Virus record (IMG/VR): IMGVR_UViG_3300043411_002794
Span: 128,195 to 192,194 of that record
Strand: one strand, 5' to 3'
Length of the DNA stretch: 64,000 nucleotides
From: a virus
Shown here: positions 15,816 through 64,000 of the stretch, piece by piece
How positions within the stretch are numbered: position 1 is the stretch's first letter
How the letters are laid out: every line of letters starts with the position of its first letter
Program-made: the position numbers and the translations under genes
The notes under the pieces: model-generated
What the model saw: only the letters and a program-made list of their open reading frames with translations
What the model was told of the DNA's origin: nothing
Database searches by the model: none

Positions 15816-16184
15816 CTAGGCAGCCGTCTGAGCGGCCTGCAGCATCAGGACGGCCTCGGCCAGATCCGGACGGTTGCGGGCGGCGCCGTGGGCGGCAGCC
15901 TTGACTTGGGTCGTAGTCGGGGCTGCAGCGACGCTGGCAACTCCGGCCGTCTTGAGCAGAGCTTCGATGCGCTTTCCGCCCTTTTCCAGCAGGCTGGCCT
16001 GCTTGGTCGGGGTGGCCGCGTAGACCTGAGCAAGCTGCTCGGCTTGCGTCAACATCGCGACGGCTTCTTGCTCCGTCTTCGGCACGATGCCGTAGTCGTT
16101 GGCAAGCTTTTCAAAGAACGCCGGCACGTGGACCTCGCGGTACAGCGTTGCAGAGGCGTTGTCGATTTCTTGTTGCGTGGGCAT
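15816..16184 (-). CDS. Hypothetical head-associated protein with KxA motifs
   Basis: 122 aa after the MCP; KQAS, KTAG, KAAA. Confidence 0.7.
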   Translation of the reverse strand: MPTQQEIDNASATLYREVHVPAFFEKLANDYGIVPKTEQEAVAMLTQAEQLAQVYAATPTKQASLLEKGGKRIEALLKTAGVASVAAAPTTTQVKAAAHGAARNRPDLAEAVLMLQAAQTAA

Positions 16185-16247
16185 GTGTCCCAGGTCCTAG
16201 CACAAAAAGACGAAAATGGTTTCGTGAACTCTCAAACGACCGAAAGC

Positions 16248-16273
16248 CCGCGCTGCACCGAAGTGCAGCGCGG
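16248..16273 (-). terminator. C-UUCG-G hairpin after the MCP
   Basis: CCGCGCTGCAC-CGAA-GTGCAGCGCGG 11-bp stem, 10 nt after the MCP stop; weak U tract. Confidence 0.6.
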
Positions 16274-16283: not shown

Positions 16284-17234
16284 TTAAACGAAGTCGGCGC
16301 GAGCCAAGGCGTTGGTGTGACCGAACGCCATGCCGATCGTTTCGTAGCTGAAGTACTCGAGCATGTACGCCTCGCGGCGAATGTACATGGTCGTATCTTC
16401 AAGAGCGAAGTTTTTCCCGATCGTCTTCGGGTCTCCGAACATGAAGAACGACCCATCCGGGATCAGGCCGTCAATCGGATTGGAAGCCGAGCAACGCTTG
16501 ATGGTCACGATCCAGTCGCGATCCATGAAGCGGGTCAGGGCCCAACCGTTCTTGGCGATGTCTTGCGCCATGTCGCCGCCGATCTCGTCACGTCCCCACT
16601 TCATCATTTCCTTGATGGTGACGTTGTTGAGGAGGATCGTTGCCACTTCGAAGTGGCTCGGCGTCTTCGGCATGATGTTCAGCGCGTCAACGACCGTTTC
16701 GCGGGTGATCCCGCCTTCGATCGTTTCCCACTGCTTCACGCCCGAGAGCGGAACGATTTCGTCCGCACCCATCAGCACGGCGTTAAACGCCTGCACGAAT
16801 TTGCTGTCTTCTTCGGCCAACATGTCCTTGATCATGTTGTCGCTGAGGACCTGGCGGATGTCGTACGAGTACGTACGGAGCTGATCGACGTCCTTCGTCG
16901 CCCGCGGCGAAAGGATACGCGCGAAGCTGATGCGGTAGCGCGGTCCGCGGATGTAGAAGTTGATCGGCAACGAGGCGAAGCCCGCCGACACGGCTGCCGG
17001 GGAGTCCGGTTCCTTGTCGATGACCTTCACGGGGTTGTCGGTGTCGACCTGGCGATCCAACTCTTCGTTTTGGATCGTCAGCATGGGGATGATTTTGCGG
17101 GCGAAGCCGTCTTCACGCATTTTGGTACGCGTGTAGTCGTTGACGGCGTCGACGGCTTGCTTCTGCATCCCCGGGTTATCGAGTTGCTCAAAGAGCGTAT
17201 CGTTGAGCTGGCGGATTTGAGCTTGCGTCGGCAT
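16284..17234 (-). CDS. Major capsid protein (HK97/encapsulin-like fold)
   Basis: 316 aa; follows protease, scaffold and decoration genes; GGGAGG RBS; downstream hairpin; C-terminal P-domain-like strands (YMLEYFSYETIGMAFG). Confidence 0.8.
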   Translation of the reverse strand: MPTQAQIRQLNDTLFEQLDNPGMQKQAVDAVNDYTRTKMREDGFARKIIPMLTIQNEELDRQVDTDNPVKVIDKEPDSPAAVSAGFASLPINFYIRGPRYRISFARILSPRATKDVDQLRTYSYDIRQVLSDNMIKDMLAEEDSKFVQAFNAVLMGADEIVPLSGVKQWETIEGGITRETVVDALNIMPKTPSHFEVATILLNNVTIKEMMKWGRDEIGGDMAQDIAKNGWALTRFMDRDWIVTIKRCSASNPIDGLIPDGSFFMFGDPKTIGKNFALEDTTMYIRREAYMLEYFSYETIGMAFGHTNALARADFV

Positions 17235-18013: not shown

Positions 18014-18415
18014 CTATTCGGACGGTGGGACGAGGCCGAGGCCTACCCACAAACGACGATCGGCTTCCGAGAGTCCGCCGCGTCGCGACGTACCACCGGC
18101 TGCAGCCGTCTTTTCGCTATCGATCGGGGTGCCGAGCGACTGCTTCTCGGCGGTGTTGCGATGCTCGGCAAGCTTGGTCAGGAGCTGGAGCACCTGAACC
18201 GGGTTTTCGAGCACCTTGGCACATTTTTCGGCTTCGGAGGGGTCGATCCGCTCGTGCTTCACGAGGGCGGCGACACACGCCGGGATCAAAGCCTTGCAGT
18301 CAGCGGCTTGCTTCTCCATCGCGGTTTGCGCGGCGGCAGCAAGCTTGACGGCCTGATTCGAAAAGCCGACGAGATCGACGATGTCTCGTTCGATCTCAGG
18401 GGTTGCCGTGGGCAT
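18014..18415 (-). CDS. Hypothetical head protein with KxAA motifs
   Basis: Start MPTATP with GGGAG RBS; KLAA, KQAA, KTAA. Confidence 0.7.
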   Translation of the reverse strand: MPTATPEIERDIVDLVGFSNQAVKLAAAAQTAMEKQAADCKALIPACVAALVKHERIDPSEAEKCAKVLENPVQVLQLLTKLAEHRNTAEKQSLGTPIDSEKTAAAGGTSRRGGLSEADRRLWVGLGLVPPSE

Positions 18416-18492
18416 GTCAAACTCTCCCTGTCTGTAGCAGGCCAAAAATTAAAAGTAACGGAACGGCTTCCTGCCGTAGGCGAGCGGACCCG

Positions 18493-19800
18493 CTAGCTGC
18501 GGATCATCTCGAGGATTTGTCGCTTCATCAGGTCACGCATGGTACGCGCTTCCTTGGTGGCGGCGGCCTTCATTTGAAAGCGACCGCTCAGCATGAAGTT
18601 GCGAGCCAAGCTGGCGACCTTCATCGGATCGCCCATCGGCGGAGCACCCGCCATGGCAGGATCGGCAGCGGGCGGCATCGCGCCCGGACCACCGGCGCCC
18701 GGAGCGCCGCCCAGGCCCATGTCGCCGCCCGGAGGCGGAGCCATTTCGCCACCCGCACCACCGGCACCTTGTCCGGCTTGGGCGAGCATTTCCGGCGTAA
18801 TGCCGAGTTCCATCAGGGCCGCAACGAGTTCTTGCAGGGCGGCTTCGTCGCCGCCTCCGCCCGCACCCGGAGCACCGCCCGGAGCACCGCCGCCCATAGC
18901 ACCGGCTAAGCCGGCCATGTCGGCAGGAGGTCCGGCGTCGCCGGCGGGAGCACCGCCGCCCGCACCCGGAGCACCTTCACCACCACCGGCACCCGATCCG
19001 CCGGCTTCTTCGCCGCCGCCGGGGTTGGTGTGGTCTTCGCCTTCGGCTTCCGCTTCATCGGCGGCGAGCTTTTGGTAGAACCCGCCGAGCAAGTCGGCAC
19101 GTTCGTAGGCTTCGTTGATGCTGTTTTCGATGACGTCCTCGACGAGGCCGACAGCCGCCGTCTTGTCGAGACCGATGCTGGCGGCCAGGTCGTAACCGGC
19201 CAAGATGTTCACCGCGGTTTCGGCGGACGCGGCTGCAGGAGCCGCAGCCGTCTTTGCGGCCGGTGCCGCCGCGGGCTTCGCGGCCGGAGCTGCAGCCGTC
19301 TTGCGGGTGTAGCCCAGCGCGACGTCGGCGAGCAACTTGTTGCCGAGAGCGATGACCTTTTCGCTCGCTTGCTTGAAGTTGGCACTACCGTACTTCTGGC
19401 CGTCTTCGGTCGTGGCCGGATGGCTGGTGCCCGGGTCGTCCTTCTTGTCCTTGTAATTGTCTTCGACCGACGGATCATCGCCCGGCATCGACTGGGACAT
19501 GCCCAGGTTCAGCGAGTTGTCCTTGTCGGCGCCCGGCGATGCGTCGGCGGTGCTGTCGACGCTTAGAGCACCTTGCTGTTTCTTGACGTCGGCGGTGTTT
19601 TCACTCGACCGTTCGCCTTCGGATGCGGCTTGGGCACCGTTGTCGGCGGAAGCCGTCGGGTGCGAACTCGAGCCGCCTTGGTAGCCGGGGTCGGCAGGCG
19701 TCGGTCCAGCAACTTTCGTCTGGCCGGCAGCTGCCTGCTTTTCAGTGATAATCTCGCTGGCCATCGTGCGGAAGGCAGCGAACAGTTCGGTCTTCGCCAT
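18493..19800 (-). CDS. Scaffold-like / internal head protein
   Basis: Disordered acidic Gly/Pro-rich protein between protease and MCP; nine K-x-A-[AS] motifs; AAGGAG RBS before MAKTEL. Confidence 0.65.
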   Translation of the reverse strand: MAKTELFAAFRTMASEIITEKQAAAGQTKVAGPTPADPGYQGGSSSHPTASADNGAQAASEGERSSENTADVKKQQGALSVDSTADASPGADKDNSLNLGMSQSMPGDDPSVEDNYKDKKDDPGTSHPATTEDGQKYGSANFKQASEKVIALGNKLLADVALGYTRKTAAAPAAKPAAAPAAKTAAAPAAASAETAVNILAGYDLAASIGLDKTAAVGLVEDVIENSINEAYERADLLGGFYQKLAADEAEAEGEDHTNPGGGEEAGGSGAGGGEGAPGAGGGAPAGDAGPPADMAGLAGAMGGGAPGGAPGAGGGGDEAALQELVAALMELGITPEMLAQAGQGAGGAGGEMAPPPGGDMGLGGAPGAGGPGAMPPAADPAMAGAPPMGDPMKVASLARNFMLSGRFQMKAAATKEARTMRDLMKRQILEMIRS

Positions 19801-19852
19801 CGTAGCGTCACTCCTTGACTTGGCGTGGCAGCACTTCTCCAGGCACTGCACC

Positions 19853-22447
19853 TCAACGGGCGTGATTGTGCAGTGAAACTCGTTGTGCTGTCAACGGGAA
19901 GTCGTGTGAAGGGTTCGGAATACTTTGCAAGAACGCGAGTTGGTAGAGGCAGTACTGCTTCGCCAACTCTGCAGCCGGTCCGCCGACTGCAGCAAGTTTT
20001 TCGGCCTGCTGCACATCACCTCGCTGGATCCGCTCGTTGCGGAAAGCAGCCAGGTGCAAGCGCCGCGTGAAATGCGGCTCCGCCAAGGAAATGGCGGAAG
20101 CCTGTTTTTCGGCCCAAAAATGCAGATCCTGAGTCGCCGACGGGGCCGGCGAGTAGGGATTTGTTTGGAGCATGCTCGGCAGGTTTTGATCCTGCGTCAT
20201 CCGCGTGAAGGCGCACGGCAAGTAGCACGTGACGACGTCCGCCACGGCGGCCGCTTGCTTCTCGTCGTAGTCGGTGACGAGCCGCACGAAATCGCGCGGC
20301 GTCAGCATGCAGCGGATGTCGGCCAAGGCACGGAGCACTTGAGCAAATTTTTCACGGCCGCCGGGCGGCATGGCGATCGGCGGCTGCACGCTGGCGGCGA
20401 ACGCTAATTTCGCGTTCTCGGCGGACGTGGTTTGTTCCAGGTCGGCCATCCGGAAGGCCAGCTTCAGGAGCTCGGCCGTCTTGGCGGGCAGCTCCTGCTC
20501 GATCATGAGGGTGTACGGGACCGTCAGACCCAAGGCTTCCGCCAACTCGGCGCCGGAGACGACGTGCCCGGCTGAAGCGGCCTTTTGCAGGACGCCGGAA
20601 ACGTAGGCAATGCGATCGGCGGGCCGGAAAACGTGGCTGATGTCGAAGAAGGTCGGCTCGGTGTTGTCGGCATGCAGTTGGTGCGTGTCGCCGTCAACCT
20701 GTACCGTCCGGCCGATGTTCTTGCTGAGGCCGCCTGCCTTGCAGAGACCGCCGTCAGCGACGTCGTGGCAGTACTGGTTACGCGTCGGAGCTTGGTTGCC
20801 GCAGTACGAGCAAACATCGAAGGGTACGCGGCAGTTATGCACGGCTAGGCCGAACGCCGTAAAGCTCTCATCTTCTTCGACGGAAATGTCGTAAACGGGC
20901 GTGCGTTCGACGACCGTGGTTACAGCCTTGACCGGGATCGCCAAGTAGTCACCGGTGATGAACACCGTTGTTTTGCCGGTCTGCGTCGCGCGTACCGCCG
21001 CCTTGGAGCGTCCGGCAAACATGCCGGAGAACCGATTGGAGACGTTGATCGTGTACTCGATTCCGTCGCCGGTCCGCAGCAGGCCGTGCGGTAGGTCGCT
21101 CGTGTGATCGATACGATAGACGGACGCCGGGATACCGATCGACGCAAGCAGCATCTGCAGTTCGATGGAAAGCCCGCGAGAGCACGTACTCCAATGGAGT
21201 CCTTTCCCGTCTTGCCAACCGTCGCCGTTGAACCAGGCGGCAACGAACTCCAGCTTGATGTCAGCCGTCGCGTCGTAGATTTCCTGCGGAATGACCTTGT
21301 TGCGGACGCCGCAACCGACTGCGGCAGTGATCGTCGACGTCAGCGGCTTGTCGTACACCATGACGTTGATCGCTTCGTCCGATGCCGAATGCGGATTTTC
21401 GCTGATCGACGCAGTCGTCAACTGCGGCAGTTCTTCAGGCAACGCGTCGGCCTTGTTGCACGTGTAGCAGAGGTAGCCGTCGCCGGTTCGGGAGCCTTCG
21501 GCGACGTAGTACCCGAGTAGGCGGGCCCGCTTGACGTCGGTCGTAGCGCTGCCGTCGCCGCGATAGATCGGCATCAACAACAAATCGCCGGACGCGAGTT
21601 CGCCGCACGGAAGCCAGCGAGCGCTGGCGTGCAACTGGTCGCGATATTTTTTCCGGAAATTGCGGCTGAAGCCGCTACGGTCCGCCGAGCGGAGCCCATT
21701 ACGCGACTTTGATCGCGGGATGTCTTTCCACCGACCGACGTAGAACTCGTGATCCGGCGTAAATTCCAGGACCTGCCGGCCGTAATACTCCGTTTCGATG
21801 CGTACGAAGCTCGGCTTCTCTCGCTGCATTGCCGCGTAGACCGGACGGTAGCGTCCGCGATGCGTGAGGACCTCGTCGCCAGGTACGATCGCCTCCACCG
21901 GAGTAAAGCCGCGACGGAGTTTGACGAGCGTACCGGCCAGCGCACACGCCATCGAGACGGCGATATCGTCGCCACGGGCCAGCTTTTCCATTTCACGATC
22001 GGCGAGCAGGCCACCATTGCGTTCGGCGGCTTCTTTGGTCGCATTGAGGGCGCAGATCAGCTCCACGCGGCTCATCGGCTCGTGGTAGGCCGAGAGCTTC
22101 ACGATGCCGTAGCTCTTGGACGGATCTTTGTTGAGGTGGTCGCGGTAGAAGCGGCCGTATTTCACGAACGTCGGATGCGTCCGTCGCAGAGCGGCTTCAC
22201 GGAAACCGTCGCCGTTACGGTTCATGCCGAACTTTTCGGTCGAACCGACGGCCAACAGGTGGATCAGCTCTTCGCCGGGATCTCGCGGGATCTTGTCGAG
22301 CTCGTAAAGGAACTGCGCACCGGCACGCTTCTCGAGTAACGAGCGATCGTTCCCGATAAGACGGCCGCGACTGCCGCGCTTGATCAGCGTCGCGACGACG
22401 TCACCGAACTCTTGGGAACCCGGCGTGATGATTTTCAGAATGCTCAT
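19853..22447 (-). CDS. Prohead maturation protease (Ser, assemblin/HK97-type) with intein and CxxC zinc motif
   Basis: RDHLNKD His motif; the spliced junction reads VSMA-CRVPFDVCSYCGN; located upstream of scaffold and MCP. Confidence 0.7.
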   Translation of the reverse strand: MSILKIITPGSQEFGDVVATLIKRGSRGRLIGNDRSLLEKRAGAQFLYELDKIPRDPGEELIHLLAVGSTEKFGMNRNGDGFREAALRRTHPTFVKYGRFYRDHLNKDPSKSYGIVKLSAYHEPMSRVELICALNATKEAAERNGGLLADREMEKLARGDDIAVSMACALAGTLVKLRRGFTPVEAIVPGDEVLTHRGRYRPVYAAMQREKPSFVRIETEYYGRQVLEFTPDHEFYVGRWKDIPRSKSRNGLRSADRSGFSRNFRKKYRDQLHASARWLPCGELASGDLLLMPIYRGDGSATTDVKRARLLGYYVAEGSRTGDGYLCYTCNKADALPEELPQLTTASISENPHSASDEAINVMVYDKPLTSTITAAVGCGVRNKVIPQEIYDATADIKLEFVAAWFNGDGWQDGKGLHWSTCSRGLSIELQMLLASIGIPASVYRIDHTSDLPHGLLRTGDGIEYTINVSNRFSGMFAGRSKAAVRATQTGKTTVFITGDYLAIPVKAVTTVVERTPVYDISVEEDESFTAFGLAVHNCRVPFDVCSYCGNQAPTRNQYCHDVADGGLCKAGGLSKNIGRTVQVDGDTHQLHADNTEPTFFDISHVFRPADRIAYVSGVLQKAASAGHVVSGAELAEALGLTVPYTLMIEQELPAKTAELLKLAFRMADLEQTTSAENAKLAFAASVQPPIAMPPGGREKFAQVLRALADIRCMLTPRDFVRLVTDYDEKQAAAVADVVTCYLPCAFTRMTQDQNLPSMLQTNPYSPAPSATQDLHFWAEKQASAISLAEPHFTRRLHLAAFRNERIQRGDVQQAEKLAAVGGPAAELAKQYCLYQLAFLQSIPNPSHDFPLTAQRVSLHNHAR
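20834..21946 (-). mobile_element. Intein (371 aa) with LAGLIDADG homing endonuclease
   Basis: Block A CALAGTLV; block G AVHN followed by +1 Cys; LAGLIDADG-like LLGYYVAEG and FVAAWFNGDG. Confidence 0.92.
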
Positions 22448-23295
22448 TGTTTAGCGTCCCCGCGTCCTGGCACGAGTCCTTCGTAAGATTGGTGGCCGGC
22501 GGCGGCACCTGCCAGCGTGCCGATCAGTCGCGGCAAAATGAACTTCAGAATGCCGGTCCGTTTTCCGACTGCTGGTAGCGGGGCGCCCTTCGCGGCTACG
22601 GCCTTTACAGCATCCGGCGTAATTTTCGGAGTACCCTTCGGCATATTGATCCAGTGTCGGCCGATGCCTCCGGCACGCGATCCTGCGTACAAACCAACGG
22701 CACCGCCGATCGCCGACATTACGCCTTGCGGCATGGTCGTGTCTGCGATGCTGAGCGCCGTACGTTGCACGGAACCCGGCACGTTCGGATCGTTAGCGAT
22801 GCCGTACCCCAGGCTTTTCACGACATTTGGCGATGTGTCTGCAGCTGCGTCGGCTTGTTCGCCTGTTGCGTGCACTCGCTCCCGTAACGCATCCAGCTTG
22901 GACGGCTGGGCGCCGAGCCCGTTGAAATCTTCTTGGAAGACGGCCGGAGCGGCGGCATTGCCGCTGTTGACGAGGTGCCGCCAGGCCAGCGTACCGCCGC
23001 CACCCAACATGCCGCCCAGCATCGCCTTGTCGAGGATCTTGCTGTAGTTGCGTTCCTTTTCCGGCCGGTTCAGTTCGCTGACGCCACCGGCGATGCCGCC
23101 CGCACCAAGTCCGATGAGAGCGTTACGAAGCGTCTCGGCCGTGACGTTGGGCGTACCGTTCGCGTGGACCGGATTCTGCAACGACGCAAAGATGCCGCCG
23201 CCGGCAAGCTTCGTGAATTCGAGTTGATGCGTGAGCACGGCCGCCGCAGCCTGCGGCGAGTACCGACTATACGCCAGCGCGTCCGAGACTTGCAC
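22444..23295 (-). CDS. Glycine-zipper virion-internal protein (putative)
   Basis: Several GxxxG hydrophobic segments; KLAG motif; ATGA-type overlap with the protease gene. Confidence 0.65.
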   Translation of the reverse strand: MQVSDALAYSRYSPQAAAAVLTHQLEFTKLAGGGIFASLQNPVHANGTPNVTAETLRNALIGLGAGGIAGGVSELNRPEKERNYSKILDKAMLGGMLGGGGTLAWRHLVNSGNAAAPAVFQEDFNGLGAQPSKLDALRERVHATGEQADAAADTSPNVVKSLGYGIANDPNVPGSVQRTALSIADTTMPQGVMSAIGGAVGLYAGSRAGGIGRHWINMPKGTPKITPDAVKAVAAKGAPLPAVGKRTGILKFILPRLIGTLAGAAAGHQSYEGLVPGRGDAKQ

Positions 23296-24595
23296 TGGGC
23301 ACCTCGTTGACTTGTCGCAATTTGTTTTCCGAACCCAGCAGTTGGTCGATGTCGAAGTCCGCCAAGCGACCCTGCTGCAAGTACTTGGCGAGTGCGGCGC
23401 GCATGGCGGCCGGTTGTTCGGACAACCGCGGGGCCATCGTGGTGATCTCGTTGAACCGGCCCATCACCTGGTCCTGCGGATAGCCGCTAATGACGTCGTC
23501 CTCGGTCATCAGATTCTGCAGCATCGACTGCAGGCGGATGTTGCGTAAATCGGCTTCGTGCTGAGGATCCGTGAGATCCTTCAGCACGCTGTTGACGGCA
23601 TCGGTGTTCGGTGCCGACACCGAGTTGGCGATGCTGTCGATGATGTTCTTACCGTAATTCCCGGCCACGTTTTGAGTGAACGGCGAGCCCCAGAAGTTGG
23701 CTCGCTTGACGTCCTCACCCAAGATGGATCGTGTCCGGGGTTCTGCGAAAGGGCGGAGGGCGTCCGCAGCCCGCGCCTCCAGTTCCGGCTGTGCGTGATC
23801 GTAGGCCGCTTGCTTTTCGGCATAGCGATCCAGTTGGGCGAACACTGCCTCCAGCAACGGGAAAGCCCCGCCGCGCGCCGGTCGCAGCAGCTTGTCGGAA
23901 GCCTGCTTGGCCAGGTGCGGGTGAGCCTCGACCAGCATGCCGCAGACCTGCTCGGCCTTGCGGCCGTGCAGCATGGCAGCCTTCTCCCGGAACCAGCCGA
24001 AAGGCACGGCGCCGGTGGTCATGAAGTACTGGCCCAGGTCGTCCATCCGGGCGAGCAGCCGATCGTAAGCCGCCGACTTTTCGCGGCGAACCTCATCCAG
24101 CTCGCGCTTGGCTCGCTCGGCCGTCGCGTAAGCCTTGCGAATGCTGAACTCTTCGTCGGCCGGCAGCGGAGCCGGTTTCGGGCACAACGGCGGCAGCGTA
24201 ACGGTCGCGGCTGCTCGCTTCTCTTCGTCGGCCGCTTTGTGGGCGAGAATCGTGGCCGGTCGCAGCATGTAATCCGGCGAGAGAACGCACTCCCGTCGCA
24301 ACTGGGCAGCGGTCTTCGGTTGCGTCGGGTAGATGGTCTCCAACACGACGGCCGGATCCACGAGCGGGAAATCGGCAGCCTTTTCGAAGACGTCCGTACC
24401 GGCCATCCGGTGGTGCGTTGTTTGCCCAGTGTTATACGCGCGGGCCAACATACTGATTTCGCCGGGACGCAGTTGGGCGGCAGTCGCCACCTTGATGACC
24501 GCGTCCGTCGGCGTGAGCCCGTCACCGACCAGCTCAGCGGTCTTTTCGACCGCCGCTAGCATTCGGGCCTCGGCATCCGTGCCAAGTGGTTTCAT
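23267..24595 (-). CDS. Hypothetical helical head protein rich in KxA motifs
   Basis: 442 aa; KTAE, KTAA, KRAA, KQAS, KQAA. Confidence 0.75.
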   Translation of the reverse strand: MKPLGTDAEARMLAAVEKTAELVGDGLTPTDAVIKVATAAQLRPGEISMLARAYNTGQTTHHRMAGTDVFEKAADFPLVDPAVVLETIYPTQPKTAAQLRRECVLSPDYMLRPATILAHKAADEEKRAAATVTLPPLCPKPAPLPADEEFSIRKAYATAERAKRELDEVRREKSAAYDRLLARMDDLGQYFMTTGAVPFGWFREKAAMLHGRKAEQVCGMLVEAHPHLAKQASDKLLRPARGGAFPLLEAVFAQLDRYAEKQAAYDHAQPELEARAADALRPFAEPRTRSILGEDVKRANFWGSPFTQNVAGNYGKNIIDSIANSVSAPNTDAVNSVLKDLTDPQHEADLRNIRLQSMLQNLMTEDDVISGYPQDQVMGRFNEITTMAPRLSEQPAAMRAALAKYLQQGRLADFDIDQLLGSENKLRQVNEVPSASLGRAGV

Positions 24596-25991: not shown

Positions 25992-28571
25992 TTAGTTTCC
26001 TGCGATCGGAGCCAGATCCACTTCGCCCGAGGACTCTTCGGGGTACGGTTCGACGGACTTCTGCTTGAGGAAGATCACGACGTCGCCGAGACCTTCGAAC
26101 GAATTGCGAAGTGCGTCTTCCAGCTCCGGCATGTCTTGCTTACCGAACCGCTCGGCGAACCGATCGCCGTGCCAGTAGAACATGAACAAGATCCGGCCCA
26201 GGCTATCAAGGCCTTTAGCAAGCGGACCCATGTAACGATCGATCATCGTATCGTCACGGACCGCCTTGAGCATCGAGCCGATGGCCGACGCGTCGAAGAC
26301 TTCCGTCTGGTCGCTGCCGCCGGCTTGTTGCATGGTTCCGGCATCTTGCGGGCCGATCGGTTTGTCGTACTTCGGGTTCGGGTTGTAGACCTGCGGATCC
26401 GTGAGCCAGCCTTGCAGCCCCGGGACTTCGCTGATTTGGGTGTCCGAGTAGCGCGTGCGGGCGCTATCATGCATGAAATTGCCGCTTTCCGGCTGCGGCT
26501 CGTTGTAAGGCGGCGAGCCGACCGACGAGTCCGTCAGATACGGCGAATTGCCCTGCTGGGCGTAGCCGTACTTCACGTGGAACGAGAAGGCACTGCGGTG
26601 CTGGGCCCGGCCCATCAGCTCGCGGGCTTCTTTCTCCCGGAAGCCGTGATCACGCACCAGGTGCACCAACGCGTCACGGTGATGCAGCGAGCGTTCGTTG
26701 ACGGTGACTGTCGGGCCGTCGACCTTGATGCTCATGAGCGGGAATTCGTTCGCCAGTGCGACCTTCAGTTGCTTCGGCGTACCGAGTTCGAACGCTTCCT
26801 TGGTCGTCTTCTCCGCCTCGGAGTGCGGCTTGAAGTTCTGCGTGAACATGTGCATCTGCACGTCGACGAGATTGCCCGGGCTGATCGGCGGCTTTTTGCT
26901 GGCGCCGTCGAGCGGACCGCTGACGTCCACGTCGTTGCTGTCGCTGCTGCGGACAAGGTCGTATCGCGAGGATTCGACCGTCAGCAGCTTGAAGCCCTTC
27001 GGGACGTACATGTCGCCGCGCTGGGACGTGATCTTCGTGCCCTGCTTGGCGTCGAGGTGGATCCGTTGCCCGTCGCGGTACGAACAGTACGAATCGTCGG
27101 ACCATTCCGGCGAAACGCGCGGACCGCCCGTGTTGAACTGGCGGTCGACGTACGTATCGAAATCGACGTCGTAGCACTTATCGTTTTCATCGAGCCCGAG
27201 TTCGCCGCGGACGCGGAACGGAACCGTAGCGTCGCCCTCAGGCCCGATCAGGATGTAGCGGGTGTAACCCTTGCTCAGCGTGCCCGGCTCCGACAGCGAC
27301 TCGAACCACGACTTGAATTCGCTCTTGTCGTATTCTTTGCCGACCCAGACGGCCGCCGTCGCGCAGTTGATCCAGTCCTTACCGCCGCCGTCGAGACGGA
27401 CGACGGTGCAACCGCCCAGCCGCTTATCCGGCCCGGCACCGTGGACCACCACCAAGCACTTCTCGAACTTGTTCGGTTTGACGAGCACGTCGAACAGCCC
27501 GGTTTCGCTGGGGTTTTGCAGGCGTTGTTCAACCTGCAGGCTGTACGCGACCGAGACTTCCTCGGCCTTCCGCTCGTCTTTGATCAGCAGCTTGTCGCGG
27601 GCCAGTCGTTCAGCCTCTTCATCCGAGATCCCGGCCGGCCGCACGGGATTACTCGAGCTGTCGTAGGTCATGATCTGCAACGCACCGGTTTTAATCGGGT
27701 GCGGGATCGCTTCTTCGGCCAACAGGGAGCCGGTCTTGATGCGGAGCGGCTCCTTGACCGGCGTCAGGATGCTGCGGGTGCGGGCACGGGCGCCGGCCAG
27801 CTTGATCGCTTCGTTGATCACGCCGAGACCGTGGAACCGATCGAACGACTGACCGATCTCCGGATAGTCTTGGAACGTCTCCACCAAGCGGCCGAGCATT
27901 TGCAGCCCAGCTTGCTTGAGAAACGTCGGCAAATGCAGATTGGCGTGCAGCTTCTTGAACTCGGCGTCGATGTCGGTCGTGGCAGCGCGGGCCAGCGCGG
28001 GCATCGCCTCGGCCATTTCTTCGGCAAACGAGCCTTGCTTGAGCGACGGCGAATTGCTGAGCCGGCTGAGGTCCGGCGTCAACATACCGAGCAACGACGA
28101 GTTACGGCCGACGCCGGAGCCCATGATATTGGGCTTCTTGTTGAGAATGTCGTTGACCCAGTTTTCCTGCAGCGGCACGAACACGTCCTGATTTTTCAGG
28201 TACAAAAGCTCATGGCCTTTGAGCGTGCCGTTGAGGAAGAACACCGGGGCCAGCAGGAGGCTGCTGCCGACGCGGAAACCGAAGACACCGATCGCTTTGT
28301 TATTGTCTTCGTTGCGATCGAGCAGCTGGAAGCCAATTTCGTGGTCCAGCAACGTCGGGGCAGAGTCCCGCAGGTACGCATGAGCGAGATTGCTGAAGGC
28401 CTGTTCGAACGGAACGTCGTTACCAGCCTGACTGGCACTAGCGGTCTTAGCGATCGCCAGCTCCCCGTGAGGGATCGCGAACGTCGCCATCTTCGTCAAC
28501 CAGAAACGAACTGCAGGCGATTGAGCCTTACGCATGTCGTGCTCCATCCATGGAACAAGGTCCGCGCTCAT
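25992..28571 (-). CDS. Large hypothetical virion protein
   Basis: 859 aa clean ORF; KTAS, KQAG, KLAG motifs at segment boundaries. Confidence 0.8.
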   Translation of the reverse strand: MSADLVPWMEHDMRKAQSPAVRFWLTKMATFAIPHGELAIAKTASASQAGNDVPFEQAFSNLAHAYLRDSAPTLLDHEIGFQLLDRNEDNNKAIGVFGFRVGSSLLLAPVFFLNGTLKGHELLYLKNQDVFVPLQENWVNDILNKKPNIMGSGVGRNSSLLGMLTPDLSRLSNSPSLKQGSFAEEMAEAMPALARAATTDIDAEFKKLHANLHLPTFLKQAGLQMLGRLVETFQDYPEIGQSFDRFHGLGVINEAIKLAGARARTRSILTPVKEPLRIKTGSLLAEEAIPHPIKTGALQIMTYDSSSNPVRPAGISDEEAERLARDKLLIKDERKAEEVSVAYSLQVEQRLQNPSETGLFDVLVKPNKFEKCLVVVHGAGPDKRLGGCTVVRLDGGGKDWINCATAAVWVGKEYDKSEFKSWFESLSEPGTLSKGYTRYILIGPEGDATVPFRVRGELGLDENDKCYDVDFDTYVDRQFNTGGPRVSPEWSDDSYCSYRDGQRIHLDAKQGTKITSQRGDMYVPKGFKLLTVESSRYDLVRSSDSNDVDVSGPLDGASKKPPISPGNLVDVQMHMFTQNFKPHSEAEKTTKEAFELGTPKQLKVALANEFPLMSIKVDGPTVTVNERSLHHRDALVHLVRDHGFREKEARELMGRAQHRSAFSFHVKYGYAQQGNSPYLTDSSVGSPPYNEPQPESGNFMHDSARTRYSDTQISEVPGLQGWLTDPQVYNPNPKYDKPIGPQDAGTMQQAGGSDQTEVFDASAIGSMLKAVRDDTMIDRYMGPLAKGLDSLGRILFMFYWHGDRFAERFGKQDMPELEDALRNSFEGLGDVVIFLKQKSVEPYPEESSGEVDLAPIAGN

Positions 28572-30961: not shown

Positions 30962-31174
30962 TCATTTGCGCTGCACTAACGGCAGGTGATATTCTTTGGC
31001 GGTTTTCGCAAAAGTGGGATCGCCGAAGTTGGCACAGATATAGCTTCGCGGACCAACCTCCAAAACGAAGTTGATCAGATTACCGAAGTCGTCGTACACC
31101 AGGACATTGCCGGTAGTTTTGGTCTCTATCGGCTTGAGGCCGTCACGCAGTTCCACTTGCATTGGCATGAGCAC
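30962..31174 (-). CDS. Small hypothetical protein between the RNAP halves
   Basis: 70 aa ORF ending 7 nt before the beta'C start. Confidence 0.55.
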   Translation of the reverse strand: MLMPMQVELRDGLKPIETKTTGNVLVYDDFGNLINFVLEVGPRSYICANFGDPTFAKTAKEYHLPLVQRK

Positions 31175-31946
31175 GCTGCCGAGATTGGAGGAGACGCATC
31201 ACCGTCGCCGCCTTGGCAATCCCTGAATCGGGATCGTCGGCCATTGCGTGCGGACTGATACGCGAAACCGGATCGCCGATGTAGGAGTCGGCCTGCTTCT
31301 CATCTTCGAGCTGATGCTGCTCGTCGAGAATGCGCTGGGCAAGCATGGTACCGAACGCTGCTGCCTTGGACGCCGGGGCGGCACCTTGCATCGGTTCGAC
31401 GGGTGAGATGGCGCCCGTATCGCCGCCGGCAGCCGGTTGTTGTACCGGACCTGGATCCATGGGACCGCCGGGGACTGCAGTCTCCGCGACCGGGGCGGAC
31501 GTCATACCGGGCGGCAATACGAGCACGCCAGGCGGCAGGGTGATGCCGTGGTGATTCATGATCGCCGTCACTTGCTGCTGGATGTTGTACAACCGCGTGT
31601 CCAACATCTGCATCATTTGTTCGGGCTTGAGCTTTTGCTGGGCGGGAGCAGCCGGGGCCGCCGGAGCGCCGCCAGGCATCGAGCCGGGCAGCGGCTGAGC
31701 CGGTGCCGCCGGAGCAGGCGGAGGCATCCCACCACCGGCCATTGCAGCCGGGTCGCCAGGTGGGGGCGGAGGCATTCCACCAGCCATCGCAGCCGGGTCA
31801 CCGGGAGGCGGCATTCCGCCTGCAGCCGCTGGGTCGCCGCCCGGAGGCGGAGCCATTCCGCCGCCCGGAGGTACGAACGCACGCTTTTCCGGATTACTCA
31901 ACCGGTGCAGCGCCATCGTCATCAGTGTGTCGTCGATGCCTTCCAT
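31143..31946 (-). CDS. Pro/Gly-rich disordered protein with KxA motifs
   Basis: Start MEGIDD with GGAGG RBS; imperfect PPPGDPAAMAGGM repeats; KRAF, KAAA, KQAD. Confidence 0.7.
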   Translation of the reverse strand: MEGIDDTLMTMALHRLSNPEKRAFVPPGGGMAPPPGGDPAAAGGMPPPGDPAAMAGGMPPPPPGDPAAMAGGGMPPPAPAAPAQPLPGSMPGGAPAAPAAPAQQKLKPEQMMQMLDTRLYNIQQQVTAIMNHHGITLPPGVLVLPPGMTSAPVAETAVPGGPMDPGPVQQPAAGGDTGAISPVEPMQGAAPASKAAAFGTMLAQRILDEQHQLEDEKQADSYIGDPVSRISPHAMADDPDSGIAKAATVMRLLQSRQRAHANASGTA

Positions 31947-32004
31947 GGAACACTTCCTCCTGTGGGCGTAGTTGTACCGCGTCGCTGTAACTGACGGAAG
32001 CTCA

Positions 32005-35000
32005 CTAGGGACGCATGATCTTAATCCGTCGCGAGCCGTCGATTTCACCGCGTTCGTAAGCCCGTAATGCGTCCGCCGGGGTTTCGAACACCGTCGGGCG
32101 GTTGTGGGTATCAATTCGCGACGTCAAATGATACATGCCGCCGACGTATTCCTGACTCGGCAGGTAATGCGTACGGAATTTGGCGACGCTGAACAGGTTC
32201 TTGCTGGGGAGCATTTTCTCGGCCATTTCTTTGGCCGCTTCATCGTCTGCGGGCAAATGGAACTGCATGGCGTCACCGTCGAAGTCGGCGTTAAAGCCGC
32301 CGACCACGAGCGGCGAGATCTGCATCGTGTGCCCCTTCATGATCTTCGGCCAGAAGGCCATCACGCCATAGCGGTGCAACACCGGGGCGCGATCGATCAT
32401 CACCGGCCGCTGACCCATCTCCGACACTAGCGCTTCACGCGCAACCGGATGCTTGTTTTTAACGAGCTGGGCCGCTTGCAGTCGCGGCATCCCGCGGCGA
32501 ACCAGGTGCCGCACGGTGTACGGCGTGTAAAGATCCCAGGCCTTTTCCTCCGGAAGCCCGACGCTGTCCATGTCCAGATCCGGGTTGGGCGTAATCGTCG
32601 CTCGCCCGACAAGATCGGTGGTCGTGCTGAGCAACTTGCGCTGAATCATGCCGAACTTCGGACTCGAGCCGAAGATCTGCTTGAGTAGACCTTTGACGCC
32701 CCGCTCCTGATTCTTCGGATGCTGCGGCTCACCGAGGCCCGACACCGCCTTCATCGCGTCGTACGTCGCCAGCCGTTCGTCACCGACGTCATCAACCTTG
32801 TCGGACATCTGCTTGAGCACGTCGTTGGCGTCGAACAATTCTTTGTAAAGATAGTTGGCATCGGCCACGAGCGGCAGCTTCTTCTGACCCATCGTCGTCA
32901 CGGGGCGGAAGCGGGGCGGCAGCACCGGCACTTTACCCATGATCCAGTCTTTGGGGTGCACGCCGGTGCGGGCGGCCGCCGTCAGGAAGCCGAATTTGCG
33001 AATGGCTTCATCACGCTGGGTCTTCCGCGCGCTCTTGAGCGACAAACGGGTTTGTTCGATCTCGCGATCGAGATCGATGTTGGACAAGGCCTTGACGATT
33101 CCCTGCGGACCGCTGACGCCGTGCAGCGACTCACGGCCGGCCAGTACGTCCCGCATCTTGTTCTCAGTCAGCCCGAGAACGCGGCGAATCGGCTCTTCCA
33201 TCACAGGGTTCGGCATCGGCTCATGCAGCCGAATAGCGGACCACCGCGTGCCTTCGTGGCCGCCGGTGATAGCCTCATCAAATAGACCGCCCCGCTTCGG
33301 CTTGAGGCCGTTCTTCCAGTCCACCGTCTCGGTGTTTTGGATCTCGCGGCCGCCGGTCAGCTCGTCGACCTTAGCCGGACTCATAGCCATCAGCTGCGTC
33401 CGTGTCCCGTCTTTAACTGGATGGATCCCGGCGCCCTGCAGCATCCCAATGAACTTTTCGTAGGTCTTCGGGATTCGCGGCGTCGTCGGCTGATAGCCGG
33501 ACATGAACTGCGACCAGAACTCAGGATTCGCCTGGCCCCGAATCATCTTCGCTTCACGAATGACCTTCCCGGCGCCGTGCGACAACAGGGCACCGAGGTT
33601 GAGCATGCCGATCCGCTTAGCGCCGCTCTCGCCGCCCTTGGCCGGAGCACCTTCGCTGGTGTAGCCGCCGATGCCGCGGCCCTGGGCCTTGGCTTCCGAC
33701 GTGTGATGCAGCTTCATGAACCAACGATTCCCGGCAAAGACGTTCGGGATCTTCTTGCCGGTCTCCGGATCGATAACCGAATCCAGGTCGCTGAGGTTGT
33801 GCTTTCGCAGTTCGCTCATCGCAAACTCGACGGCATCGGTCGCCGTTCGGAACGGCACCTTATACGGCTTGCCGGTGACGGCCGCCACTTTGCCGAGAGC
33901 CGCCTCGATCATTTGGGCGGCGTTCACGCGGCTGATGACGCCGAGCGGATTGGTGAGGATCTCGTAGGGTTTGCCTTGTGCGTCAGTCGGCATCTCGTCG
34001 TCGGGAACGATCATCGAAATGACGCCCTTGTCGCCGTAGCGACCACTGAGCTTGTCGCCGACTTCAGATGGAACAGTGGCCTTCACGACGACTGTGGCGC
34101 CTTTGTCGGTGTTGACGACGTCAGTTACAGTTCCCGGGGCATGATGGTCCCAGGTGATGCTGCTATCAATGACCTCCGGTCGTCGACCACGATGGATCGC
34201 TCCATGTGTCCGTTCGCGTTCTGTGATACTAAGTACCAGGGGATCGCCGTAACGGATCTCTGTTCCTGGTTTGACGACTCCGTCGTCGGTGAACTGGTCG
34301 AGGACGGCACGATGAAATCTTCCAGGAAAGTTTGACAGGAAGGCATTCTTGCCGCGGCGGACGTCGGGTCCCCATTCGGCGACATGCTGATAGGCATGCT
34401 CGGAAGATAATCGCTTGGCAGCGCTCTCGCTGATGACGTTGGCGTCTTCAAAATTGGCTCCGCGGAAGGGCAAATATGCGACGCGCAGGTTTTTACCCAG
34501 CGCAGTAACGCCCTGACCGTCCGTGAAATTGGAGCGCGCCAAAAGCTGCCCCGGCTGAACCACGTCGCCCGGTTTGACGACAGCGGTCTGCGTGATGAGG
34601 GTGTTGTGCACGATGAGCCCGTGGTCGACACCGAACACCTCCGATTCAGCAACGCAGAAATCGTAAACATGGGCTTCGTGCGGGATTGCCTCCACGGCGA
34701 CTACCGTATCCCACATAACGTCGGACGCACCCCACTTGCCGAAGTTGCCGGTACCTGCGACCAGCCGATGCTTGGCCACAGCGCCCTTACCAGCGGTCTT
34801 GTAAACATAATTGGACGACTGCGGCAGTTCGGCATACAGCGACTTTCGGGCAAGCTTAGACACGATCGGCACCATGTCGTACGGCGACGCCCGGTACGCC
34901 CGACGAAGCAGTTCGCGGAAAAGCTGCTCGCGATCGTCGTAGAAGAACCAGCGGGAGAGCCGTGAGAGGTGGCTGCTGATGATGCGGAAGCCGTACGCGT

Positions 35001-38543: not shown

Positions 38544-38892
38544 CGGACGGACTCCCTTCCGCGTAAATTTCGCCCCATTCCAAGAACGTCTTGATCGAGC
38601 CGTCCGGCTGATCAATATCCTTTTGCCGGTACTCGACGTACAGGCCGTTCTTGATCTTGTCCTTAATGCGGCAGTACTCTTCCAACTCTTGCGGCTGTGC
38701 CAGATTGAACCATTTCGCGTGAAAGTTCAACTGATATCGGATGTCGTCGATTTCCGAACCACGAAGATTCGGAATCACTTTTCCGGCGTAGGGAATTCCG
38801 TCAGGAGTCCCTGGCCAGACTAGCGGAGTACCGTCACTTAATTTGCTTTCGTGATAGTACTTACGACGACTTATTCGGTCGAAAAGGCTCAA
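38530..38892 (-). CDS. Hypothetical protein (120 aa)
   Basis: Clean ORF coupled on both sides. Confidence 0.7.
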   Translation of the reverse strand: MSLFDRISRRKYYHESKLSDGTPLVWPGTPDGIPYAGKVIPNLRGSEIDDIRYQLNFHAKWFNLAQPQELEEYCRIKDKIKNGLYVEYRQKDIDQPDGSIKTFLEWGEIYAEGSPSDANF

Positions 38893-39293
38893 TGAGCACC
38901 CATCAATTGCGGTGATCGTACCGATGGAGCGGCGGTACGCAACAGCAACCGCTGCGCAGAGCGGTTAGCTTGTGCTGCGTGCTGCCGCAAAGCGGCGATC
39001 AGCTCCATCTTCTTGTACTCCTCGGCATCAACGTCCGGCTCGGTCATACGGGCGGCCAGATATCCGGTTCCAGCGCCCGCACCGACACCCGCCGCCAGGC
39101 CCCAGCCGCCGAGATGCTGCAGGCCGGTCAACAGGTCCTTACCTTTGCCCCAGATCCCGATTCCGTCGGCAGCGATCTTTTCGATCGCCTCGTCGACGAA
39201 CGCACGAGTACCGGCAGCGTCGAGCCCCAGCTCCGCACATTTCAACAGGAAACCGAACTTGAACGCCTCGCGGCGCGACATGGTCTCGGGCAT
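38889..39293 (-). CDS. Glycine-zipper protein with GFLxxCxxxGL module
   Basis: FKFGFLLKCAELGL...EKIAAD followed by GWGLAAGVGAGAGTGYLAA. Confidence 0.7.
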   Translation of the reverse strand: MPETMSRREAFKFGFLLKCAELGLDAAGTRAFVDEAIEKIAADGIGIWGKGKDLLTGLQHLGGWGLAAGVGAGAGTGYLAARMTEPDVDAEEYKKMELIAALRQHAAQANRSAQRLLLRTAAPSVRSPQLMGAH

Positions 39294-61766: not shown

Positions 61767-61777
61767 AGTTCCCTCAG

Positions 61778-64000
61778 TTAGTTGCAGGCTTCAGCAAGCC
61801 GCTTGCCCATCTCTTTGTGGCTGCCGGTGAACTCGCGAAGCGTCACCGGTTTGGCCTTCGCTTTGACGGCCCCGTTGGCCATGCCGATGTCCATCGACGC
61901 GACCTTCTCTTTTTTCTTGGCAGCCGGTTTAGCCTTCGGCTTCTCTTCGGACTTCTCCGGCGAGACGGTGTCGAACAGGCCGGTCGCAGCTCGCTGACCG
62001 AGCATCGCAGATCCGAGACCGGTGGCGCTGGCTCCCAGCATCTGCAGCAATTTCGGTGCTCCGGCAGCACTGAGGCCCGCACCGACGCCCATCGCGGGTA
62101 CGGCGCCGAGCGCTGCCCCGCCGAAAGCACCGAGGCCGCCGAAAGCTCCACGATTGAAGCCGCGAAGTCGCTGGCCGGGTTTAGCGTCCAATGCACCGAT
62201 CGTGCCGCCGACACCGGCAGAGCCGGTCGCCAGCGACGACAGAAGCAAACCTATCGACGGGATGTCCGTGTCGGCAGCCTGCTTAGTCGTACGGCCGCCC
62301 TGGAACTGATGCCCCGGCGACCACTTACCGGGAGACGTCTTGGTCCCCTTTACGGTCTTGCTGATCGGCCGACGCACCGGCACTGCGGATGGCGAAGCTG
62401 CAGCAGCCCCGAACGCAGCAGCTGCATTAGTCTTCACTAGCGGCGGGCCGAACGGATTACCGCCAATCGGCTTCGGACGCGGCATGAACGGATTTCCGGC
62501 GGCCGAAGCAGGCGGTGCCGTCGGGAGCTTGCCCATAGCGGCGCGCGACGCTTGAAGTCGTGCTCGTGCGTCGGCGGTCGGGATCTGTCCGGATGCCTCG
62601 CGGGCCGCGCGGAGCTTCGCCGCAGGCGTTTCCGCCGCCGCCGACAACTGTTCGTTGTGTCCGTCCAGCAGCGTACGCTTCGGCGGCGGGCCGAGCGGTT
62701 GCATCATCGACGACGCGGCACCCGGCGGCGTCATGGTCGTAGACAACGACGGGGCAGCCGGGGCCGGTGCCGCAGGCGGTAAGGCTGGAGCATTGATAGC
62801 CGGCATCGGCCGTTGAAACGGATTCGTTGTTGCCGCAGATCCGGCTGGAGGCACGCGGCTTGGCGACGGACCGGGCAGTACCGGCGTAGGCGACACATTA
62901 GGCGCGTCCATGCCGAGTGCACGAAGCGTCCCCGAATCAGTTGGATCAACAGAGTGAGCACCCCAAGATCCACGAATACGGCCCGTCCGATCAATCATAC
63001 GTCCATCCGGCATACTGAAAGTCCGCGACGGTTCCGGTCCTGCTTGTGCCGCTCCGGCGGTTTCGACATCAGACAACGGCAGCGTCGGAGCCCCGTTGGC
63101 CTTCTGCATGCTTTGTATCGCCGCTGGATCAATATCCTGCTGCACAGGCGGGGCGGGCCGCCCGGCCTTGAGATAAGGGTACGACGGGATGCCTTGCAAC
63201 TGGCGACGCGCCGCGCGAGCAGTCATCTCTTCGTATTGTTTCGATCTGATCTGATTTGCGTATTCTTCCTGCCCCGGTAACCCGGTACCTTGCCGCTCTG
63301 CGATCGCGTCAGCGACAGGTCCGACGCGCGAACCTGAAGCACGGTCGTTTGATGCACTAACGCCGCCGTCGCCGTAAAACTCAGTAGCGGATAATTGTCG
63401 TTCCGGTCCGTGGTCCGGCATCACAACAGGGCCAGGTTTATTCGTCACCATGCCGGGTTCAGGCATAGAACGACTCGGCATCATGTAACCATTCCAATTA
63501 AGCGTCGGCCGTGCCACGCCCGGCGGCAACGACGCTACGTTCCCGCTGGGCGTTTTTGTCGGCGGGACGTAACCCGTGTACTGCGGTTCCGGTCGCGGTG
63601 CCTGCCCCATCGCTGGCGTGAATCTGCCCGGCGGATGCGGTGCAGCAGGCGGCGTAAGTTTCTGCGACAGATCACCGCCAACGACGGCTTTCAGCGACGG
63701 CGCTACGGGTGACTTGGGCGATCCCAGTCGCGGTGCCTGCCCCATCGCTGGCGTGAATCTGCCCGGCGGATGCGGTGCAGCAGGCGGCGTAAGTTTCTGC
63801 GACAGATCACCGCCAACGACGGCTTTCAGCGACGGCGCTACGGGTGACTTGGGCGATCCCGGTGTCGGTAGCAGCGGATGCGGTGCAGCAGGCGGCGTAA
63901 GTTTCTGCGACAGATCACCGCCAACGACGGCTTTCAGCGACGGCGCTACGGGTGACTTGGGCGATCCCGGTGTCGGTAGCAGCGGAGCCCCATTGGCCTT
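61778..64000 (-). CDS. Large Pro-rich repeat protein with C-terminal glycine zippers (5' end outside the window)
   Basis: Frame open from base 64000; KQAA and KVAS flank the Gly-zipper helices. Confidence 0.75.
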   Translation of the reverse strand, partial: KANGAPLLPTPGSPKSPVAPSLKAVVGGDLSQKLTPPAAPHPLLPTPGSPKSPVAPSLKAVVGGDLSQKLTPPAAPHPPGRFTPAMGQAPRLGSPKSPVAPSLKAVVGGDLSQKLTPPAAPHPPGRFTPAMGQAPRPEPQYTGYVPPTKTPSGNVASLPPGVARPTLNWNGYMMPSRSMPEPGMVTNKPGPVVMPDHGPERQLSATEFYGDGGVSASNDRASGSRVGPVADAIAERQGTGLPGQEEYANQIRSKQYEEMTARAARRQLQGIPSYPYLKAGRPAPPVQQDIDPAAIQSMQKANGAPTLPLSDVETAGAAQAGPEPSRTFSMPDGRMIDRTGRIRGSWGAHSVDPTDSGTLRALGMDAPNVSPTPVLPGPSPSRVPPAGSAATTNPFQRPMPAINAPALPPAAPAPAAPSLSTTMTPPGAASSMMQPLGPPPKRTLLDGHNEQLSAAAETPAAKLRAAREASGQIPTADARARLQASRAAMGKLPTAPPASAAGNPFMPRPKPIGGNPFGPPLVKTNAAAAFGAAAASPSAVPVRRPISKTVKGTKTSPGKWSPGHQFQGGRTTKQAADTDIPSIGLLLSSLATGSAGVGGTIGALDAKPGQRLRGFNRGAFGGLGAFGGAALGAVPAMGVGAGLSAAGAPKLLQMLGASATGLGSAMLGQRAATGLFDTVSPEKSEEKPKAKPAAKKKEKVASMDIGMANGAVKAKAKPVTLREFTGSHKEMGKRLAEACN
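63592..63986 (-). repeat. In-frame exact tandem repeats (three copies of a 94-bp core; periods 135 and 108 bp)
   Basis: Identical cores at 63632..63725, 63767..63860 and 63875..63968, encoding GSPKSPVAPSLKAVVGGDLSQKLTPPAAPHP. Confidence 0.95.

Follow-up and report, generated by a model that had tools for sequence, protein, structure and literature searches.

The stretch of DNA analysed here (the window, 64,000 nucleotides, positions 128,195 to 192,194 of IMG/VR record IMGVR_UViG_3300043411_002794) is the final 64 kb of the 192,194-base genome of an uncultured phage, and nearly all of its genes lie on the minus strand. It holds a head-gene module with the order protease (open reading frame (ORF) 19853), scaffold-like ORF, two small ORFs and capsid gene, which is identical in Salmonella phage Arash, Vibrio phage D69 and Bacillus phage G. 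An initial annotation of the window had noticed that a short motif, K-x-A-[AS], recurs in proteins of this region and had read it as a candidate protease-cleavage or packaging code. The analysis supports a motif which is selected, Lys- and Ala-specific, lineage-wide and confined to head-assembly proteins encoded near the protease gene. We consider it likely that it is the cleavage motif of the ORF 19853 prohead protease and its clade. Coordinates are window positions unless genome positions are stated.

The head module and its protease

A megablast search with 24 kb of the sequence against cultured phages returned no match. Pfam and PHROGs, run on about 40 ORFs, gave no function to any protein with an excess of the motif (hereafter, marked protein) and named none of the head proteins of the window.

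The protease precursor (19853..22447, minus strand) comprises 864 residues with a predicted gp21/assemblin fold and carries five K-x-A-[AS] sites, where 0.7 are expected. As the initial annotation had implied by speaking of a spliced protease, it contains an intein. By alignment, the N-extein covers 21947-22447, the intein with its Hint and LAGLIDADG domains 20834-21946 and the C-extein 19856-20833 (all minus strand), the exteins being delimited in addition by intein-free homologs of about 490 residues. The borders read ...VSMA↓C and ...VHN↓C, with Cys at +1. Pfam LAGLIDADG_3 scored above its cutoff (30.8 bits vs 22.5), and the matches to Hint_2 and Intein_splicing stayed below theirs. The N-extein has more than 745 homologs, mostly of about 490 residues, intein-free and located on contigs of about 200 kb, and most protease homologs of this length run unbroken across the intein junction. 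A search with the full protease profile yielded 3,155 representative clusters at 50% identity. Judged by its domains, the Cys at +1 and the intein-free alleles, the insert is a class 1 intein with a homing endonuclease.

Concerning the fold, the intein-free homolog P0005 was modelled with AlphaFold2 on a 115-sequence alignment (predicted local distance difference test (pLDDT) 84). Residues 16-237 of the model best match T4 gp21 (MEROPS S77, PDB 5JBL, chain 5jbl_A), with Z 9.2, a root mean square deviation of 3.5 and 141/165 residues aligned. The next matches are the herpesvirus assemblins (pUL26/pUL26.5, MEROPS S21) of varicella-zoster virus (Z 6.6) and human cytomegalovirus (Z 4.6), the next unrelated row standing at Z 5.3. 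The Foldseek match is weak (prob 0.80, E 0.45). On this model, the intein-free homolog has a fold resembling those of T4 gp21 and assemblin. Comparison of the protease with T4 gp21 by hhalign and Smith-Waterman was not significant. No Pfam protease family, Peptidase_S77 included, was matched by the whole protease at E 0.01 or by the exteins at E 10, no PHROG with a function was found for the protease, and the protease-family profile retrieved nothing from the PDB sequences.

Three residues, H63, H104 and S165, are invariant in the 115 protease-family sequences. By eye, the order and spacing of N-R-N...His104...Ser165 are like those of T4 N51-R-N...His85...Ser140; no residue-level gp21 alignment was obtained. 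The inteins of family members lie before N-R-N-G-D, directly after His104, after Ser165-Met-Ala and in the Cys-rich segment, positions which fit the NRN, His104 and Ser165 motifs as the presumptive active-site core. The family as a whole has at least four distinct intein places, and some members carry two inteins, an unusual density for a small enzyme; intein-bearing members are P0121, P0126, P0127, P0134, P0140 and P0160, and the window copy is inserted after Ser165-Met-Ala. Four invariant Cys (C175, C178, C189 and C198, spliced numbering) follow the putative catalytic Ser within the first ~35 residues of the C-extein (19856-20833, minus strand). This segment resembles a zinc ribbon placed within the protease domain and has no counterpart in T4 gp21.

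One of the protease sites, K622-A-A-S (20573-20584, minus strand; K251-A-A-S in the family), lies in a flexible linker directly after the catalytic domain, the sole low-confidence linker of the homolog's model. It is present in 81% of the family and is the best conserved site outside the catalytic fold.

The scaffold-like protein (18493..19851, minus strand; likely true start ATG at 19800) is rich in Ala, Gly and Pro. Its nine sites (KQAA38, KQAS160, KTAA184, KPAA192, KTAA200, KTAA230, KLAA261, KVAS411 and KAAA428) compare with 1.3 expected from shuffles and are exactly those that the initial annotation had listed. Sites 184, 192 and 200 fall in a perfect tandem repeat, K[TP]AAAPAA x3 with an 8-residue unit (19243-19302, minus strand), which orthologs do not conserve. 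The count is therefore inflated by two, leaving about seven independent copies. Ortholog alignment singles out a conserved N-terminal site (19729-19740), the middle site KTAA230 (19153-19164) and the C-terminal site KVAS411 (18610-18621, all minus strand). The first site is found near residue 25 in orthologs, and its K and A are the sole invariant N-terminal residues past Met1. The final site lies 43-48 residues before the C-terminus, where a Gly/Pro-rich spacer meets a conserved basic tail.

The major capsid protein (16284..17234, minus strand), homologous to Arash gp226 'major capsid protein' (E 1e-32), has no site and served as negative control.

The motif in the window, the genome and its relatives

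Chance expectation was taken from 2,000 shuffles per protein, over the whole protein and within 20-residue blocks. The reversed motif [AS]-A-x-K and R-x-A were added as controls, and all 8,000 a-x-b-c patterns were scanned without bias as a guard against post-hoc choice. K-x-A-[AS] occurs 46 times in the window, compared with 18.2 (whole-protein shuffle) or 18.1 (block shuffle) expected, so that the enrichment proposed in the initial annotation withstands the shuffle control it had called for. The reversed motif, with 17 occurrences, and R-x-A are at chance. Within ORFs 15816-45289, K.AA (dots denote any residue) is the top a-x-b-c pattern (29 vs 7.3, p 1e-9), and E-K-x-A is stronger still (23 vs 3.0 expected, p 2e-13). 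The sites draw on each of the four Ala codons and on both families of Ser codons. Selection hence acts on the protein, and this codon variety rules out a DNA-level word as the cause of the motif.

The excess resides in ORFs 18493, 19853, 23267, 18014 and 15816, nominally in 43415, and in 25992 only via its orthologs. By shuffles, ORFs 25992, 31143, 37665, 38889, 44531, 59307 and 61778 are at chance level in the window. The wider list of motif-bearing ORFs first drawn up thus holds for 23267, 18014 and 15816, and for 25992 in its orthologs, fails for 37665, 44531, 59307 and 61778, and shrinks to at most single conserved sites each in 31143, 38889 and 43415. The rarity of the motif in sheath, tube, capsid protein and glycan enzymes, noted by eye at that time, is complete: ORFs 16284, 11584, 10689 and 46345-59007 (capsid, tail and sugar-enzyme ORFs) have zero copies.

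Outside the window, the genome has 22 K-x-A-[AS] sites vs 20.2 expected and one outlier, a 397-residue ORF (genome 87681-88874) on the plus strand among minus-strand genes, with 6 sites vs 0.55. Its ortholog in G001, a related genome of 199.8 kb, has 7 vs 0.70 expected. A database look-up of the remote ORF matched only nameless viral clusters and no known family or fold. Its sequence makes it a candidate substrate of the head protease, with a gene remote from the head module.

Relatives were collected as 80 loci spanning 10 kb either side of a protease homolog, with ORFs grouped by similarity to window proteins. The mean number of K-x-A-[AS] copies seen and expected was 6.0 and 0.9 in orthologs of the protease (19853), 5.0 and 1.1 for the scaffold (18493), 5.5 and 1.0 for 23267, 4.0 and 0.7 for 25992, 2.9 and 0.4 for 18014, 2.5 and 0.2 for 15816 (n=20), and 0.1 and 0.1 for the capsid protein (16284, n=76). 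R-x-A-[AS] and the reversed motif were at chance in the ortholog groups. In a divergent set of 19 loci with mutual protease identity below 60%, the marked groups hold 396 sites vs 59.7 expected, the excess being found in 19/19 loci, and neighbouring orthologs 16 vs 22.4; the conservation in homologs by which the motif was to be judged is therefore present. K.AA, K.AS, K.AE or EK.A rank among the top three patterns in 18/19 of these loci. In G001, the six most enriched ORFs are the orthologs of the remote ORF, 23267, 18014, the protease, the scaffold and 25992, and the remainder of the genome has 42 sites vs 47.6 expected. Since the same orthologs are enriched in both genomes, there is a fixed set of about seven marked proteins; the robustly marked set is about 6-7 proteins.

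ORF 23267 (23267..24595, minus strand) encodes a 442-residue head-module protein with no assigned fold and 5 sites vs 0.65 expected. All five lie in the N-terminal ~260 residues, and a conserved C-terminal domain of ~150 residues is site-free, a layout shared by its relatives, in which sites fill the N-terminal part and spare the C-terminal domain. Its positional counterpart is Arash gp220. ORF 18014 (18014..18445, minus strand), a 143-residue protein between scaffold and capsid gene, has 3 sites vs 0.26 expected, and the residue-112 site of its family has invariant K and A inside a gappy linker. Directly downstream of the capsid gene, the 122-residue protein of ORF 15816 (15816..16184, minus strand) has 2 sites (15993-16004 and 15891-15902) vs 0.37; in 20 orthologs conservation is 0.94 for K and 1.00 for A at the sites, and 0.44 in the flanks.

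ORF 25992 (25992..28571, minus strand), a conserved head-module protein of 859 residues, has one strict site, K42-T-A-S (28437-28448), and K178-Q-G-S. K-x-[A/G/S]-[A/S] is found at residue 178 in 19/19 family sequences, in a low-pLDDT loop. Its fold model (pLDDT 62) showed no portal or other clear structural match, and the family profile found nothing among PDB sequences; the position of the gene suggests that it may be the portal.

By tblastn, the protease domain was detected in Salmonella phage Arash, in Vibrio phages D69, D181 and D148, in Bacillus phage G (gp19) and in many actinophages. Sites seen and expected in Arash are 7 and 0.63 for gp220, 6 and 0.77 for gp223, and 5 and 0.43 for gp225, with K.AS and EK.A as top patterns. 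In Vibrio phage D69, gp271, the ORF after the protease, has 10 vs 0.74. The excess is weaker in Bacillus phage G (portal 3 vs 0.33, protease 3 vs 0.36). Gordonia phage Stormageddon shows R.AS (8 vs 1.5) beside K.AS (6 vs 1.0). In this phage (L101, 7836-11105), both R-x-A-S and K-x-A-S are in excess in a 1,089-residue protein annotated as capsid maturation protease and in its neighbours. Such counts hint that Arg may replace Lys in the actinophage branch.

Residue specificity was determined in 85 proteins of the marked groups from the 19 divergent loci. K.A is enriched 2.9x, any other residue two after Lys at most 1.15x and any other residue two before Ala at most 1.19x. The residue following K-x-A is Ser (8.7x), Ala (5.5x) or Glu (5.3x), with Asp at 1.0x, Ile at 0.6x and Pro at 0.3x. 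The near variants named in the initial annotation are accordingly enriched as K.AE (5.3x), K.AG (2.4x) and K.AF (2.6x), and not as K.AD (1.0x). In terms of motif excess only, [LI].E (1.11x) and [SAG].E (1.09x) are at chance in the marked proteins, vs 2.9x for K.A.

Across 373 non-redundant sites, sequence information is limited to positions -3 to +4 relative to the Lys, with none beyond, which identifies a short linear motif, not a repeated domain. L/M/F are preferred at -2, E/V/T/I at -1 and Q/T at +1, Pro and Gly are excluded throughout, and Glu precedes Lys in just 27%. In alignments of the marked families, the K and A of the motif are conservation islands within gappy, poorly conserved stretches. 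As regards the placement at borders of disordered spacers which had been described, it holds for the C-terminal scaffold site, the protease linker and the 25992 loop, and does not for several protease sites in confident helices.

T4 served as positive control. When gp67, gp68, gp21 and gp22 were put through the same scan, I.E and L.E ranked first, with 16 [LI].E vs 5.7 expected in gp22, in agreement with the published I/L-x-E rule (PMC12991175).

A putative cleavage motif and its alternatives

Characterised relatives read P3 and P1 and leave P2 free. The motif of SPN3US is A-x-E↓ with Val at P4 and Ser at P1' (PMC10052503), that of the T4 prohead protease I/L-x-E↓ (PMC12991175), and herpesvirus cut sites are YLQA↓T and VQA↓S (PMC4498786). 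In the P3-x-P1 frame of these relatives, K-x-A↓S/A fits with P3 Lys and P1 Ala, and +3, which excludes Pro and Ile, is compatible with P1'. We infer that K-x-A↓[S/A/E] is cut by the ORF 19853 protease and its clade, probably at the Ala↓Ser/Ala bond, which puts Lys at P3, any residue at P2, Ala at P1 and Ser/Ala at P1'. A limited coverage of the literature yielded no account of a K-x-A motif for a phage protease, which does not prove that there is none.

In the proposed mechanism, the protease would gain activity once its intein splices out. It would recognise K-x-A followed by Ser, Ala or Glu, with a preference for a hydrophobic residue at -2 and for Glu, Val, Ile or Thr at -1. The scaffold would be cut near its N-terminus, in mid-protein and ~45 residues before its C-terminus, the last cut releasing it from the conserved basic tail, which probably holds the capsid protein. 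The protease would also cleave itself, at the linker that follows its catalytic domain, and act on four or five further head proteins, whose site-rich N-terminal parts would be trimmed or degraded. The capsid protein would be left uncut. Cleavage with a Lys-x-Ala specificity, as proposed in the initial annotation, is the best explanation; its "large internal proteome" is reduced from 13 to about 6-7 marked proteins, and nothing sets its alternative of a packaging code apart from cleavage.

Several observations weigh against cleavage. The virion proteome of Arash reports a coverage of 80-100% for the motif proteins, gives no termini and, if anything, does not show degradation. No family member has a known mature N-terminus or peptide, and the multi-omics paper on phage G holds no cleavage data. 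The fold match to gp21 is moderate and comes without any sequence-level link, and the position of the cut bond is assigned by analogy only. Unlike in T4 and phiKZ, the capsid protein is free of sites. Moreover, several sites in the C-terminal domain of the protease lie within confident predicted helices.

The motif might instead be an uncut docking or targeting signal, a multivalent 'sticker' for the capsid interior, the portal or the protease, or a driver of scaffold-core assembly. Enrichment, conservation and restriction to head proteins fit a binding motif equally well, as do the sites within helices and the detection of motif-bearing Arash proteins in virions at high coverage. Known capsid-targeting signals, as in T4, are single N-terminal peptides, unlike the 5-10 dispersed copies here. 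The motif spans at most seven residues without Pro or Gly, as in strand-bound protease substrates; within the protease itself it flanks the catalytic domain, in a flexible linker, and it stands at the border of scaffold spacer and tail, where other systems make release cuts; and the T4 control shows that genuine cut sites yield just such an excess. We regard docking without cleavage as unlikely.

Equally improbable, in our judgement, is a protease motif which is cut elsewhere, either after the Lys as by HK97- or trypsin-like enzymes or after the preceding Glu, with the P1 Glu of T4. The strong enrichment of E-K-x-A in the window (23 vs 3.0) and the depletion of Pro directly after Lys speak for it. 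The share of sites with Glu before Lys stays at 27%, conserved sites having V, T, I, D, Q or S at this place, [LI].E and [SAG].E remain at chance, and the invariant Ala two after the Lys, followed by Ser/Ala, is most easily read as P1 and P1'.

A functionless by-product of composition, low complexity, shared helical repeats or duplicated modules is very improbable and as a compositional artefact fails every control run: although the marked proteins have a high Ala content (15-23%), a single tandem repeat accounts for three scaffold copies and nine-residue motif stretches recurring in Arash gp223 and gp225 point to some duplication, the excess is not reproduced by either shuffle, the reversed motif or R-x-A, the other Ala-rich ORFs 59307 and 61778 are at chance, the 373 non-redundant sites hold no information outside -3 to +4, and sites are conserved where their flanks vary.

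The putative cleavage system has parallels in known head proteases. As in T4, the protease gene lies beside the scaffold and capsid genes, and scaffold and protease are loaded with a three-residue motif with a free middle position. T4 gp21 acts on gp22, gp67, gp68, internal proteins, gp23 and gp24, cutting I/L-x-E after Glu, whereas here I/L-x-E is at chance and K-x-A stands in its place. The protease here further differs by its length of ~490 residues, its Cys-rich insert and a helical C-terminal domain of 230 residues, by a capsid protein without site, and by the lack of sequence similarity to gp21 and of a Pfam S77 match.

The proteases phiKZ gp175 and SPN3US gp245 recognise A-x-E↓ (S/A/G-x-E in phiKZ), process many head proteins in a P3-x-P1 mode with several motif copies inside N-terminal propeptides, and cut themselves. 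In SPN3US, Ser is found at P1' and Val at P4 (PMC10052503), and here Ser/Ala follows the Ala and Glu/Val/Ile precedes the Lys. A multisubunit RNA polymerase is encoded beside the head genes in these phages as well. P1 is Glu there and probably Ala here, and the number of marked proteins here (about 6-7) is much smaller, SPN3US having at least eight proven substrates among ~50 head proteins. K-x-A, most likely the cutting signal of the present protease, would depart from the 'after glutamate' rule of T4 and phiKZ.

Herpesvirus assemblin cuts after Ala before Ser/Thr in x-Q-A↓S/T (PMC4498786), which is near the K-Q-A-S of the scaffold, where the bond is putative. Both systems have a release-type site past the catalytic domain and a site a few dozen residues before the scaffold C-terminus, ahead of a probable capsid-binding tail. 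Herpesviruses have a hydrophobic P3 in place of the putative P3 Lys, and their scaffold is an in-frame nested copy of the C-terminal part of the protease, whereas the scaffold here has a gene of its own. Profile comparison of protease and scaffold gave no similarity (probability 0.3), and that of the C-terminal domain with the scaffold likewise nothing. Tentatively, the gp21-fold clade (~3,000 clusters at 50% identity, among them Arash, D69 and phage G) may cut K-x-A↓S/A and share with assemblins both the Ala↓Ser rule and the layout of release and tail sites; we hold this to be possible, with the odds somewhat against it.

HK97 prohead protease gp4 (MEROPS S78) cuts the capsid protein after Lys103. 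The likeness is that a substrate of a phage head protease has a Lys at or close to its cut site, which is putative here. In the present system there is no Pfam S78 match, gp21 is the best fold match with no HK97-type protease among the listed fold matches, and the capsid protein has neither delta domain nor site.

Further candidates, neighbouring genes and implications

Three ORFs are possible single-site substrates. The 367-residue protein of ORF 43415 (43415..44518, minus strand) has 3 sites vs 0.59, a nominal excess which is not replicated in its G001 ortholog (1 vs 0.35), where only the residue-105 site is retained, as K-V-G-S. ORF 31143 (31143..32114, minus strand; 323 residues, Pro/Gly-rich) has 1 vs 0.29. 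Its EK-x-A sites at residues 77 and 273 are retained in the G001 ortholog, and the second reads K-x-A-[AS] in 42% of orthologs. In the 134-residue protein of ORF 38889 (38889..39293, minus strand; 1 vs 0.26), the residue-39 site EKIAA aligns with VKSAA of the G001 ortholog. G001 orthologs of 31143, 38889, 43415 and 44531 show no enrichment, single sites being conserved in the first three.

The window also encodes a fused beta/beta' multisubunit RNA polymerase of 1,883 residues (32005-37656, minus strand) with a LAGLIDADG intein of its own at about residues 635-1018. A separate beta' C-terminal piece (29083-30954, minus strand) is encoded just upstream of the head genes, an arrangement shared with Arash. 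Between the head-proximal genes and the sugar-enzyme block, a protein with a 2H phosphoesterase domain and a PAS-domain protein are encoded (44531-45289 and 45135-45701, both minus strand).

Head proteases of large phages decide which proteins are retained in the capsid and injected. To our knowledge, only those of the T4 and phiKZ groups have a known specificity, and both groups cut after Glu. If true, K-x-A would be a second rule, covering a clade of ~3,000 clusters with Arash, D69 and phage G as cultured members. It would bear on bacterial immune sensors, which detect phage proteases via bait loops (PMC12991175). Mature ends and head cargo would become predictable for hundreds of uncultured phages of ~200 kb, and the maturation systems of phages and herpesviruses would have a direct link in specificity besides the one in fold.

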